In this document: positions 13,443 through 17,430 of the stretch, piece by piece
Layout of the letters: each line of letters opens with the position of its first letter
Numbering within the stretch: position 1 is the first letter of the stretch
Assembly (NCBI GenBank): GCA_045617465.1
Contig: JAZLIQ010000003.1
Coordinates: forward strand, 15,738-39,737
Length of the DNA stretch: 24,000 nt
Source: Mycoplasmoidaceae bacterium
Lineage (GTDB): Bacteria; Bacillota_I; Bacilli_A; Mycoplasmatales; Mycoplasmoidaceae
Reading direction: 5' to 3'
Translations under genes and position numbers: made by a program
Notes under the pieces: model-generated
Seen by the model: the letters and a program-made list of their open reading frames with translations, nothing else
The model's database searches: none
Told to the model about the DNA's origin: nothing

Positions 13443-13490
13443 TAAAAAAAATTATATTTTTTTGTTATTTTTAAATATTATGTATATAAT

Positions 13491-13517
13491 AAGTGGGAGA
13501 AAGTGGAGAAAAGTGGG
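13491..13517 (+). promoter_or_regulatory. Three phased MraZ boxes (AAGTGGG / AAGTGGA / AAGTGGG, 10-bp spacing) forming the mraZ operator, next to a TATAAT box at 13485-13490
   Basis: Direct repeats start at 13491, 13501 and 13511. They lie between the -10 box and the mraZ ATG (13520). This matches the described Mollicutes MraZ site (direct AAAGTG[G/T] repeats) and the E. coli arrangement of three repeats at 10-bp spacing. Confidence 0.8.
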
Positions 13518-13519
13518 AA

Positions 13520-13963
13520 ATGCTATTCCTAGGAACTTATAAACATATAATCGATGACAAAAGTCGTTTAAGTTTACCAGCAAAGCTAGTAGACAAATTT
13601 TCTCATCGTGTTGTAGTTGTTTCTAAAGGTTTTGAAGGATGCCTTGAACTTAGAAGTCAAGAAGATTTCCAAGTTTGATCTAGTCAAATTCTATCTTATT
13701 CTCAAAATAAAAAGGACTCACGGATCCTTGCTAGACAAATTCTAGCTAACAGCATGGAACTAGAACTTGACAAGGCAAACCGTATTCTAATCCCTGATGT
13801 TTTAACTAAATTAGCTAAGCTAAACAAAAATGTAATCATTATTGGATTAGGAAACAAACTAGAAGTTTGGGATGCTAAAGCTTATGCTAAGTTCCAAGCT
13901 GAAACTGATAGCAAGTTTGAAGCAGTAGCTGAAAGAATTGACGATGAATCTACAAACAAATAA
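13520..13963 (+). CDS. mraZ: Transcriptional regulator MraZ
   Basis: N-terminus MLFLGTYKHIIDDKSRLSLPAKL, plus a second SpoVT/AbrB-like half with DKANRILIP. ORFs 13493 and 13754 are in frame and joined by TGA. Confidence 0.93.
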
Positions 13964-14867
13964 TATTCATACTCCAGTTCTTTTGCAAGAACTTATAAGT
14001 AATCTCAAGGTTAAGCCAAATGGTTCATATGTTGATTGCACAGCAGGATTTGGCGGACATAGCAAAGCTATTGTCAAGGAACTATCAACTGGTCATCTAA
14101 CATGTATTGACCAAGACATTAATGCAATTAATCACCTAAAGAAATTATTTAAAAATAAAAAGAATGTAACTATTATCAAAGATAACTTCATCAACATTGA
14201 TCAAATCGTCAGTCAACCAGTTGATGGAATCATCATGGACTTAGGTGTAAGCAGCTTGATGTTTGATGATCCTCAAAGAGGATTCAGCTACAAACTAGAT
14301 GGACCACTTGATATGCGTATGGATGGTTCGAACAAGAAAACTGCTAAAGATATCATTAATAATTACACGCGCACACAATTGATGAACCTATTCAAACAAT
14401 ACGCAGATACGCGCGTTATTAATAAGGTTGTAGATGCGATCATCAAGTACAGAGAATTAAAACCAATTGATTCAACCTTAGAACTAGCACAAATCATTAG
14501 TGATTGTTTTCCTGGTTCTTCAATAAGAAAACATCCAGCCAAGGTCTACTTCCAAGCCTTAAGAATAGAAGTTAACAATGAGTTGGAAATACTAGCTAAA
14601 GCTTTAGAAAAAGCTTGCAAGCTACTAAAGAAGAAAGCAAGATTGTGTATTATTACTTTCCATTCTCTAGAAGATCGTATAGTTAAAAACTATTTTAGAG
14701 AAATAACTCAAGTCAAGGACTTATATGGCAAAGATGTTCCGATTGCAAAAATGTCTAAACCAGAATTCAAATTAATAAGTAAAAAACCAATCCTTCCTCA
14801 AGATGAGGAAATCAAAAAGAATAGAAGAAGCCATAGTGCTAAATTAAGAGTAATAGAAAAAATTTAA
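13944..14867 (+). CDS. rsmH: 16S rRNA (cytosine(1402)-N4)-methyltransferase RsmH (MraW)
   Basis: HTPVLLQELI..., the SAM motif VDCTAGFGGHS, DLGVSSLMFDDPQRGFSY and FHSLEDRIVK. The start is either the ATG at 13944 or the TTG at 13938, and it overlaps the mraZ end. Confidence 0.93.
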   Translation: MNLQTNNIHTPVLLQELISNLKVKPNGSYVDCTAGFGGHSKAIVKELSTGHLTCIDQDINAINHLKKLFKNKKNVTIIKDNFINIDQIVSQPVDGIIMDLGVSSLMFDDPQRGFSYKLDGPLDMRMDGSNKKTAKDIINNYTRTQLMNLFKQYADTRVINKVVDAIIKYRELKPIDSTLELAQIISDCFPGSSIRKHPAKVYFQALRIEVNNELEILAKALEKACKLLKKKARLCIITFHSLEDRIVKNYFREITQVKDLYGKDVPIAKMSKPEFKLISKKPILPQDEEIKKNRRSHSAKLRVIEKI

Positions 14868-14869
14868 GT

Positions 14870-15910
14870 ATGAGAGACGCAAAGCAAATAAGAAAGGTAT
14901 TGTATGTAGGTGCAAGTAACATTGCCCTAATTGTTATTAACAATGTTGATAACAACAATGACATTCTTTTTGCTAGTCAAGTTGAAGTTGATAGTTCAAA
15001 CCTTCAACCTAAAATCTCTCAATTATTAACTGATGCAGCAAACTTCTTAGGTTTCAATATCAAAGACGTAGAACTTGTCTTTGACGACAACCAAATTACT
15101 AAGTATAGTTATACTAACCGCGAATTTGTTGATTGCAATAGTGAAGAAGATATAGCAAAGGAAATTTTCAAAGAAGCAAAGATCAACAACTACTTTGTTA
15201 ATGAAATTAACTTCTTTGGAATTAAGTTTGATGAAATTGATAAAGTAGCGACAGTAAACTGTCAAATCTGTGCAAGTGATTACATCACATATAAGAAATA
15301 TGTTAAAGCAGTTAGTGCATGCAATGTTGTTATCACTAATACAACTAACTTATATAAGTTATTAAAACAAAACAAAGAAAACATTGAAATAACAATCAAG
15401 ATTGAAAATGGTGTTGCCATTGTTTGTGAATATTATGGTAGCAAACTAAACAATGTAATTGTTGTTGATTTAAAAATGAATGATATTAAGCAACATATCG
15501 CAGACAAATTCAATGTCAGTCAAGATAAAGTTGACAGTGTCTTAGCTATTGCTAACCAACTTGCTGTTGCAGATCAATTAGATGAATTGGTTATCAACAA
15601 CTACAACTTAAAAACTAAAACATATAACGAAGTTAAGGCTGTTGACTTACTAGCTTTATATCGTGATGAAGTTAAGGTTCAAATCAACAACTATGTTGAC
15701 TTCCGTAACTTCCAAAATGTAGTAGTTGTATCTGATTTAGCAATCAACCAATTAGAAGGTTTTAATTTCATTACAAATGATGAAATTGGTTTTGAAAATA
15801 TTTCAGTTGATAAATTCCTTTGTTTACAAAACATTGATTTGAACAAAGAAATTAACCAATTCAACTTTGAAAACAAAATCAAATCATTTGATTTGGTGGT
15901 TAGGAGTTAG
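14870..15910 (+). CDS. Divergent FtsA-like (actin-fold) cell-division protein; assignment by position and weak motif resemblance
   Basis: The 346-aa ORF sits between rsmH and ftsZ. Its N-terminus KVLYVGASNIALIVINN resembles the FtsA phosphate-1 strand (DIGTSK...). ITIKIENGVAIVCEYYGSKL...LKMNDIKQHIADKFNVSQDKVDSVL resembles the FtsA DxGGGTT...GG..IT.DIA segment, but the Gly-rich ATP loop is lost. Confidence 0.55.
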   Translation: MRDAKQIRKVLYVGASNIALIVINNVDNNNDILFASQVEVDSSNLQPKISQLLTDAANFLGFNIKDVELVFDDNQITKYSYTNREFVDCNSEEDIAKEIFKEAKINNYFVNEINFFGIKFDEIDKVATVNCQICASDYITYKKYVKAVSACNVVITNTTNLYKLLKQNKENIEITIKIENGVAIVCEYYGSKLNNVIVVDLKMNDIKQHIADKFNVSQDKVDSVLAIANQLAVADQLDELVINNYNLKTKTYNEVKAVDLLALYRDEVKVQINNYVDFRNFQNVVVVSDLAINQLEGFNFITNDEIGFENISVDKFLCLQNIDLNKEINQFNFENKIKSFDLVVRS

Positions 15911-15912
15911 TT

Positions 15913-17151
15913 ATGGAAGAAAACAAGCAACTAACAACCAATCTAGAACAACAAGCTCCTGCGCCTAAAGCTAGCTTTAGTAATATCAACTTAGAGGAAG
16001 AAAATAGTAGTTTCAACATCAAAGTAATTGGTATTGGTGGAGCAGGATGCAATGTAATTAATCACATTGCTGCTAACCACAAAGACATTAGTGATGTTGC
16101 TACTTTGTATGCCTTCAATACTGATCTTTGTTCATTAAAGTTAATGAAAAATGTTCCTAACCTTTTCCTTCTTAATAAAGAAGAATTAAAGGGTTATGGT
16201 TCGGGTGGAAACCCTCTTGTTGGTAAACAAGCTGTACAAAAAGATGCACCAGCCATTAAACAAGAATTGGCTGGAACTGATATTTTATTTATTATTGCAG
16301 GTATGGGAAAAGGCGCTGGATCTGGTGGTGCGCCAGAACTTGCACAAATTGCTAAAGAATTAGGAATTCTTACTGTAGCAATTGTTAATATGCCTTCCAT
16401 TGCATGTGAAGGAGAAGTTATCTTCAATAATGCATTCAATGCATTGCAATCTCTATTAGCTAACTCTGACTCAGTTTCAACCATTAGTAATGAAAAGATT
16501 ATTAGTAATAATAAAGATATAAGTTTCTTTGATGCTTACCAATTAGCCAACGAAGAAATTGCCTTCATTATTGAAGACATCATCAATATCATCTTTAAAC
16601 CTACGGTTATGAATGTTGACTTTGCTGATTTAAAATCCTTCTTTAAACATAATAAATATTTCATGGCTAACCATCTAACATTTGATAATGTTAACCTTGG
16701 GCAAATTCAAATAAGAGAGCAAATAGCTAGAAAGATTAAAAATAGTTTGTCTGATGTAAACATCAATGAATCTAAACAAGTTATTGCTAACATTTGTATG
16801 TCACGCGATGCACCTACAACTATCTTAGCAGATATTAACCGATCGTTTGCGGAGATAACCAAGAATGATAAGCTATCGCTGGTGGCAGGTATAAACTATC
16901 GCGAGGACAAGCAAATAATATTATCATATTTAATCGCGGGTAAAAACTTTGCAACTAACTTCGATAATGCATTTGAGGCCTCCAGCGAGTCGTCAGCCTC
17001 GTGGTCCGAGCCAACAGTCAAAGTCGAGCCTATCAACGATTTGGAAGCAAATGAGTACGATAATTTAATGAAAGATATAGAACAGGCCGCCCGGCCAACA
17101 GAAGATATTATTAATCAAAACGAAAAAATAGAAAATAACAAACAGGAGTAA
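15913..17151 (+). CDS. ftsZ: Cell division protein FtsZ (divergent)
   Basis: AGGAG precedes the ATG. Motifs are IKVIGIGGAGCNVINHI, AFNTD, GYGSGGNPLVGKQA and DILFIIAGMGKGAGSGGAPELA (degenerate tubulin signature), followed by a long acidic C-terminal tail. Confidence 0.93.
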   Translation: MEENKQLTTNLEQQAPAPKASFSNINLEEENSSFNIKVIGIGGAGCNVINHIAANHKDISDVATLYAFNTDLCSLKLMKNVPNLFLLNKEELKGYGSGGNPLVGKQAVQKDAPAIKQELAGTDILFIIAGMGKGAGSGGAPELAQIAKELGILTVAIVNMPSIACEGEVIFNNAFNALQSLLANSDSVSTISNEKIISNNKDISFFDAYQLANEEIAFIIEDIINIIFKPTVMNVDFADLKSFFKHNKYFMANHLTFDNVNLGQIQIREQIARKIKNSLSDVNINESKQVIANICMSRDAPTTILADINRSFAEITKNDKLSLVAGINYREDKQIILSYLIAGKNFATNFDNAFEASSESSASWSEPTVKVEPINDLEANEYDNLMKDIEQAARPTEDIINQNEKIENNKQE

Positions 17152-17155
17152 AAAT

Positions 17156-17338
17156 ATGTCTGAAATTGAAAAAATTAAAGTTCAACCAACAGAAAAGATT
17201 GATGTAAAGAGTTATGATAACATTGAACAAGAATTACGTCAATTAACTAAGGATGAGTTGCTTCATAGGTTAACCTATGATGAAACTGATCCAGATGTTA
17301 TCAAGTTAATTAAAAAAATCTTGAAAACTAAAGCTTAA
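17156..17338 (+). CDS. Small acidic hypothetical protein (60 aa) coupled to ftsZ
   Basis: AGGAG (17144-17148) lies 7 nt before the ATG, which is 4 nt after the ftsZ stop. The composition looks helical and charged. No family recognised. Confidence 0.6.
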   Translation: MSEIEKIKVQPTEKIDVKSYDNIEQELRQLTKDELLHRLTYDETDPDVIKLIKKILKTKA

Positions 17339-17368: not shown

Positions 17369-17395
17369 TTAGCACTTTTTTGTTATGAGTGCTAA
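17369..17395 (+). promoter_or_regulatory. CIRCE element (HrcA operator) TTAGCACTT-N9-GAGTGCTAA upstream of dnaJ
   Basis: It matches the CIRCE consensus TTAGCACTC-N9-GAGTGCTAA at 17/18 arm positions with exact 9-nt spacing. A TATAAT box at 17404-17409 follows, and the dnaJ ATG is at 17431. Confidence 0.9.
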
Positions 17396-17430
17396 TTTTC
17401 TTATATAATATATGTATATTTATTTATATT

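Follow-up and report, generated by a model that had tools for sequence, protein, structure and literature searches.

A rare-codon cluster with flattened codon bias at the 3' end of ftsZ in a Mycoplasmoidaceae genome

Rare-codon clusters were reportedly described by Clarke and Clark in 2008. In Streptomyces, the bldA/TTA system is a known case of control by codon choice: a rare codon and its minor tRNA gate the expression of developmental genes. Position-specific conservation of rare-codon clusters has been described among homologues (PMC5438181). This report presents an analysis of the 3' end of ftsZ, the gene for the division protein FtsZ, in an uncultured gut lineage of the Mycoplasmoidaceae. 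The anomalous patch at this end of the gene is a cluster of rare codons that is inherited, confined to third codon positions, codon-box-dependent, and partly conserved.

The window, the whole stretch of DNA that was analysed (24,000 nucleotides), covers positions 15738-39737 of contig C3; coordinates below are those of the window unless a contig is named. The assembly comprises 647 kb in five contigs with a G+C content of 32%, and its completeness by marker genes is 85.7%. TGA is decoded as tryptophan; translation table 11, for example, splits dnaJ at an in-frame TGA. The closest named records are Mycoplasmoidaceae metagenome-assembled genomes (MAGs), including Candidatus Hennigella equi, the source of which is horse faeces (PMC8957277). 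The gene order is mraZ, mraW, a 346-aa open reading frame (ORF), ftsZ, a 60-aa ORF, dnaJ, and grpE. The 346-aa ORF (14870-15910) occupies the usual ftsA position between mraW and ftsZ; its length is kept at 341-346 aa among genus members, and a Pfam search with it gave no match at E<=0.01. In FtsZ, the Pfam Tubulin/FtsZ GTPase domain covers residues 35-198, and residues 35-331 can be aligned to solved FtsZ structures. The patch therefore starts within the C-terminal subdomain and continues into the tail, which is where the preliminary description of this DNA had placed it. The features of the locus are collected in Table 1.

Table 1. Features of the ftsZ locus, in coordinates of the window
Feature	Position	Strand	Basis
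ftsZ coding sequence, 412 aa, last gene of the mraZ-mraW-(346-aa ORF)-ftsZ block	15913..17151	+	ORF call
Part A of the cluster, rare codons not individually conserved relative to the 93%-identical sister lineage	16798..16992	+	GC3 turnover
CpG-rich stretch, 20 CpG: 10 across codon boundaries, 6 NCG, 4 CGN	16804..17097	+	Counts
Core of the de-biased rare-codon cluster, codons 309-394	16837..17094	+	Maximum-scoring segment, 28.4 nats; alpha 1.1
Part B of the cluster, rare codons conserved	16993..17128	+	Low turnover, genus-wide synonymous identity
Last two sense codons of ftsZ, CAG GAG, both rare (2% and 9% usage)	17143..17148	+	Read from the sequence
60-aa ORF immediately 3' of ftsZ; context, outside the cluster	17156..17338	+	Called as a gene in relatives

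Between 16800 and 17100 there are 20 CpG dinucleotides in 301 nt, an observed/expected ratio (O/E) of 1.38; the ratio for the genome is 0.45, and GpC is not depleted. The earlier hand counts were reproduced: 18 CpG in 16831-17100 plus those at 16804 and 16806, one CpG in the first 270 nt of ftsZ, a G+C of 33/60 in 16951-17010 and of 15/60 in 16501-16560, and, over codons 296-397, a GAG:GAA ratio of 7:3, four TCG codons, and tryptophan written as TGG. When 300-nt windows were scanned across the genome in steps of 30 nt, a scan that scored 18 CpG for the patch, higher counts were found only in a few windows on contig C5 (G+C up to 0.53), which are probably the rRNA operon. Codon usage was scored in 90-codon windows of 529 long ORFs (code 4) against the relative synonymous codon usage (RSCU) of the genome, and the ftsZ tail is the most atypical of the resulting 10,208 windows (z -9.97). 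The runner-up windows (z about -8) belong to two ORFs of ~120 aa that may be spurious; among longer ORFs the next value is about -6.7.

The gain is limited to third codon positions, with GC1 and GC2 the same as in relatives, and the shift is thus synonymous, as had been claimed. Third bases of codons 296-397 number 32 A, 23 C, 24 G, and 23 T, against an expectation of 40, 12.6, 7.1, and 42.3. The patch holds the genome maximum for third-position G (G3, z +8.1) and the genome minimum for third-position T (T3, z -4.5), with C3 at z +3.4. Consecutive 40-codon windows of the cluster core have G3 scores (zG) of 4.4-6.3, and, measured against the codon usage of the genome itself, rare codons are significantly enriched here. 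From the amino-acid sequence and genome codon usage, 7.0±2.3 CpG and 19.6 GC3 positions are predicted, whereas 20 and 47 are observed. Given the observed GC3, the expectation becomes 15.4±2.6 CpG (P about 0.05 for the observed 20); the CpG excess is therefore mostly a by-product of GC3. An overlapping gene was considered as the cause and rejected: alternative frames span 31-44 codons, and the one longer antisense frame is an artefact. No opposite-strand ORF of at least 60 aa exists under table 11, in line with the preliminary description. Under code 4 a 92-codon stop-to-stop antisense frame is present, in which stops can arise only before Tyr codons, and for this reason it carries no weight.

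The underlying signal is lost codon bias, and “GC-rich” is a less accurate label for the patch than “codon bias lost.” A one-parameter flattening model, in which the probability p of a codon is proportional to RSCU^(1-alpha), gains 38.3 log-likelihood units at alpha 0.96; a push toward GC3 gains 21.9 and adds nothing on top of flattening. The enrichment thus tracks codon rarity beyond base composition alone, with the rare isoleucine codon ATA raised as well (five of nine Ile codons). When A/T-ending and G/C-ending codons were scored as separate classes, codon choice in the patch fell in the lowest 0.6% of genome windows for both. Arginine is encoded by CGN in place of AGA, and neither GCT (0/12 Ala codons) nor TCT (0/10 Ser codons) is used. 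The effect also depends on the codon box. In four-fold boxes T gives way to C (11 C-ending codons versus 2.4 expected); the T-ending codons are lost and the A-ending codons, which are Watson-Crick cognates, are retained. In two-fold pyrimidine boxes the fairly common C-ending codons do not rise (8/24 versus 7.7 expected). Across the genome, codon boundaries that read C|G are avoided (GAC makes up 11% before G versus about 30% otherwise), whereas the patch has ten such CpGs; a model that includes the next-base context strengthens the anomaly and does not account for it. The segment is rich in Ala, Ser, Glu, and Asp, and flattened bias in a segment of this composition therefore raises GC3 to 0.46 and lets CpGs appear.

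A 98%-identical FtsZ is encoded on Logan contigs of two other sequencing runs (SRR25429132 and SRR25429271). These contigs represent a sister lineage with unchanged gene order and 6.7% divergence over 9.3 kb, and they carry the CpG/GC-rich stretch, with 20 CpG between 16723 and 17151. The presence of the patch on independent contigs from two other runs rules out an assembly artefact or a MAG chimera, and its presence in both lineages means that it is older than their split. Comparison of the two lineages divides the cluster into two parts. Part A differs at 16 synonymous sites and at no amino acid, and its GC3 turnover (0.27) equals the neutral rate of the flanking genes (0.28). Part B shows one difference in 136 nt, where about nine are expected, and GC3 turnover from 16993 to the gene end is 0.05 (Fisher p=0.001 for the codons tested). 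In nearly every species pair of the genus, codon identity in part B is 0.65-0.9 versus 0.5-0.65 in the core of the gene, with the rare TGG, AGC-GGC, and GCC codons retained across the genus. The cluster of the sister lineage is weaker in part A and reaches about 90 nt further upstream. The direction of GC differences between the two lineages is in no way unusual in the patch.

Within the 9.3-kb comparison, the other stretches of low divergence are gene junctions and regulatory sites. The leader and start of mraZ (13478-13597) and the junction of mraW with the 346-aa ORF (14858-15037) have 0-1 differences per 120 nt, which suggests a regulatory or coupling constraint, or recent exchange. Just 5' of dnaJ-grpE lies a candidate CIRCE heat-shock operator (17369-17395, TTAGCACTT-N9-GAGTGCTAA) with one mismatch to the consensus, overlapped by a promoter-like site, TTGTTA-18-TATAAT (17380-17409). 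The 60-aa ORF that follows ftsZ has no match in a Pfam search. ORFs of equal length are called in the sister lineage and in the genus members L028 and L029; the ORF is missing from L027 and L030, where dnaJ directly follows ftsZ. The final CAG and GAG codons of ftsZ contain an apparent Shine-Dalgarno sequence of the 60-aa ORF, AGGAG (17144-17148), 7 nt before its ATG at 17156. These two codons would have a clear local reason to be rare, because they would form the ribosome-binding site of the next gene.

In genus members with 69-76% amino-acid identity, the protein sequence is conserved through the patch. Every sampled member has 31-33% GC at the locus; their tails have 6-12 CpG per 100 codons and their cores 1.5-5, with GC3 at 0.23-0.32. 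All of the eight closest members (8/8) have mildly rare codons at the position of the patch (z mostly -1 to -4, in bins from codon 301), and this mild layer is absent from the more distant members L006 and L007. The signal in the relatives is a T3 deficit with a C3 excess and normal G3. For one species with a complete genome (G002, CP185406), calibration on 400 kb of its own sequence ranked the ftsZ tail first for T3 deficit, second for C3 excess, and fourth for CpG among 5,667 windows. The strong G3 layer of the ftsZ tail is confined to the present lineage and consists of GAG, AAG, TCG, GCG, CTG, GTG, CAG, and CGG codons. The anomaly therefore has two layers: an old, genus-wide tail that is poor in T3 and rich in C3, and a lineage-specific run of G-ending codons.

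Runs of G-ending codons are found elsewhere in the genome. The threshold zG>=4 is reached by 67 forty-codon windows, which belong to 33 genes; simulations yield 8.5 such windows, distributed over 6 genes. The runs in 33 other genes are 40-80 codons long (e.g., C1:79271-80407, C2:85421-86578, C3:72846-75551, and C2:55714-60864). The longest series of windows at zG>=4, eight, is that of ftsZ, and the next longest is five; the ftsZ tail is the longest and largest of about 30 rare-codon clusters in the genome. A search for comparable patches, which the preliminary description had put forward as a check on how exceptional the island is, thus gives a divided answer: many smaller ones of similar kind exist, but none is equally long. 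The other patches share the box dependence, with 55 C-ending codons in four-fold boxes versus 33 expected and 121 versus 119.7 in two-fold boxes, and ATA is raised in them. They lie in genes of both orientations, and a replication-strand explanation was rejected on this ground, the GC-skew proxy used being a weak one. A general effect of gene 3' ends was also rejected; it amounts to just 1.1-fold over the last 20 codons of genes.

Local third-base deviations in this genome (G000) and in G002 are only modestly correlated (r 0.28-0.38 over 4,109 aligned windows of 248 orthologue pairs), whereas the strong G3 patches are mostly lineage-specific and not shared between the two. G000 genes 104 and 134 lack such patches, whereas their orthologues in G002 have them, in proteins that are 81-92% identical. 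Strong G-ending runs of G002, in proteins with this degree of identity, stand opposite ordinary A-ending codons of the G000 genes at C1:3021-4433 and C1:82622-84166, and one G002 run reads ACG, CAG, TGG, TCG, AAG, GCG, GAG, CCG. Aragorn found 29 tRNAs in the assembly; small as it is, the genome retains the C34 isoacceptors Glu-CTC, Lys-CTT, Trp-CCA, Leu-CAA, and Arg-CCT, which read GAG, AAG, TGG, TTG, and AGG. The expected tRNAs Lys-TTT, Gln, and Leu-TAA are not among the 29 found in this 85.7%-complete assembly.

The leading explanation, which is held tentatively, is that the stretch is a rare-codon cluster that may be partly maintained by selection on the sense strand or on translation. The genome's strong bias toward A/T-ending codons vanishes over about 86-100 codons, leaving synonymous codons near-uniform from the final strands of the globular domain of FtsZ through the linker/tail. 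In the old genus layer, T-ending codons are replaced mainly by C-ending ones with C|G boundaries tolerated, and the lineage-specific run of G-ending codons is superimposed on this layer. Part B and the genus-wide layer would be kept by selection on the mRNA or its decoding, and individual rare codons in part A would be free to turn over. The most likely role would be local tuning of elongation as the C-terminal subdomain exits the ribosome; codons 309-394 would be decoded while the end of the globular domain (near residue 346) emerges, which would suit a part in co-translational folding. Pressure at the level of mRNA or translation is favoured because the effect is box-dependent, occurs in either gene orientation, and is conserved in part B and the genus layer. 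The cluster of the sister lineage, weaker in part A but longer upstream, agrees with selection that acts on the region as a whole and not at individual positions.

Several observations count against selection or against its simplest form. Part A has diverged between the close lineages at a neutral pace, and most strong G3 runs are not shared by G000 and G002. Selection on synonymous changes, when weak, should have little power in a small, host-associated genome. C34 tRNAs exist for GAG, AAG, TGG, TTG, and AGG, so “rare” need not mean “slow,” and a simple slow-codon model does not predict that A-ending codons are retained while T-ending codons are lost in four-fold boxes.

The main rival is the neutral birth and death of strand-specific G3 tracts. 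The patch would then have been left by a bias of mutation or repair that acts locally on the sense strand, with tracts arising and decaying across genes and ftsZ holding the largest current one; we regard this as somewhat unlikely. The excess of G3 windows over simulation, the occurrence of mostly lineage-specific patches in both gene orientations, and the neutral turnover of part A are what such a process would produce, and the losses estimated since the lineages split, about 3 on one side and about 11 on the other, are in keeping with decay driven by AT-biased mutation. At the nucleotide level, however, a change from T to C that depends on the codon box is unexpected, as is the enrichment of ATA. 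Conservation of part B and of the genus-wide layer also speaks against neutrality, and a single mutational burst would have affected non-synonymous sites too.

A mosaic gene, created by recombination with a higher-GC allele, was among the first explanations offered for the island. In the form considered here, recombination or gene conversion would have brought in a tract from an unsampled allele, flat in codon usage and tolerant of CpG, before the two lineages split, and this tract would now be decaying. The near-uniform third bases and the CpG O/E of 1.4 resemble a source with about 50% GC3, the strong form is limited to one lineage, and raised GC3 is associated with bacterial recombination (PMC4450053). 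The separate phylogenies of core and tail that were to expose a recombination breakpoint are congruent, however: in both protein trees the lineage falls with or next to P0004 and P0006. Its stem branch roughly doubles in length from core to tail, as that of P0004 does (about 1.5x for P0006), and the tail brings no relative closer than the core does. No donor appeared among 5.8 billion proteins, phages, plasmids, or JGI metagenomes; a degenerate 56-nt pattern had 0 matches in the JGI metagenomes, and genome collections returned only genus members that were already known. The sampled genus members all have no more than 31-33% GC at the locus, other species of the genus are already anomalous at the site, and the genome contains the patch DNA only once. 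A GC-rich donor would also have shifted two-fold pyrimidine codons to C, which is not seen. A mosaic origin is accordingly improbable. Two related candidates were rejected: repeat or mobile DNA, given a single-copy patch with no DNA match in phages or plasmids, and a tract of GC-biased gene conversion, given that T changes to C in four-fold but not in two-fold boxes and that G3 far exceeds C3 in its deviation.

An embedded nucleic-acid element, the second of the early proposals, is best considered for part B, where codon choice could be constrained by a DNA site to which a protein binds or by an mRNA signal without structure, close to the point where ftsZ meets the downstream ORF. The near-identity of part B in the two lineages argues for such an element, as do the company it keeps with junctions and regulatory sites among low-divergence stretches and the raised synonymous identity across the genus with its conserved TGG, AGC-GGC, and GCC. 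The hairpins and RNA structure first suggested were not borne out: an Rfam search of the patch gave no match, folding z-scores against shuffles on the two strands (+0.95 and -0.09) indicate no unusual stability, and the consensus fold of ten genus sequences has -3 kcal/mol and 0 covarying pairs. No promoter or terminator was found within the patch on the + strand. Neither a further copy nor a complement of the conserved motifs occurs in the genome, and the conserved nucleotides fall on the most conserved amino-acid motifs. The count of Shine-Dalgarno-like motifs is ordinary, and an internal pause cluster of such motifs was rejected as an explanation, with four matches in the patch and at least four in 11% of windows. 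We give this element little credence. The last early proposal, that the patch is an island of CpG methylation or has been shielded from CpG loss caused by methylation, is very improbable. It would suit the high O/E and the boundary CpGs that are avoided genome-wide but not in the patch, but a search of the assembly (85.7% complete by marker genes) for a PF00145 C5-cytosine methyltransferase gave no match, the CpG count barely exceeds its GC3-based expectation, and rare codons without CpG (ATA, GAG, AAG, CTG, GTG) are involved too.

A broader and speculative view, to which we attach a low probability, is that box-specific, de-biased sense-strand tracts (in ftsZ and about 33 other genes here, and in different genes of a sister species) are footprints of an undescribed process. 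Such a process might be decoding-linked gating by minor C34 tRNAs that couples division to tRNA supply, or a localized, transcription-oriented mutation or repair in mismatch-repair-poor gut mollicutes. What looks like a “CpG/GC island” in an AT-rich minimal genome can be no more than codon bias switched off, and the likelihood comparison of flattening with a GC push, together with box-specific tests, offers a practical way to separate this from horizontal transfer. If the cluster tunes the synthesis or folding of FtsZ, it would be a conserved translational feature of a division protein in an uncultured gut lineage. The lineage-specific G-ending runs across the genome are a small puzzle for the evolution of synonymous sites in reduced genomes.

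The ftsZ tail can be set beside known systems. With the bldA/TTA system it has in common the concentration of rare codons in a key cell-cycle gene and the retention of minor tRNAs (Glu-CUC, Lys-CUU, Trp-CCA, Leu-CAA); ftsZ has many rare codons rather than one, and the comparison is an analogy only. Recombination-associated rises of GC3 and GC-biased gene conversion (Lassalle et al. 2015, PMC4450053) likewise raise silent-site GC3 and CpG locally on an AT-biased background. In contrast, the shift in ftsZ is not a symmetric one from weak to strong bases, since two-fold pyrimidines are static and ATA is up, and flattening beats a GC push by 16 log-likelihood units. Unlike the rare-codon clusters described before (Chaney et al. 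2017, PMC5438181), ftsZ has a strongest component, the G-ending codons, that is lineage-specific, and its bias is erased (alpha about 1) rather than turned to a preference for rare codons, with T-ending codons lost from four-fold boxes. Like those clusters, it is a statistically extreme local run of rare synonymous codons within an ordinary gene, it is located toward the end of a folded domain and in the linker, and its position may be partly conserved in orthologues while individual codons turn over. Under either reading, selective or neutral, the ftsZ tail is a known kind of feature that is extreme for this genome.
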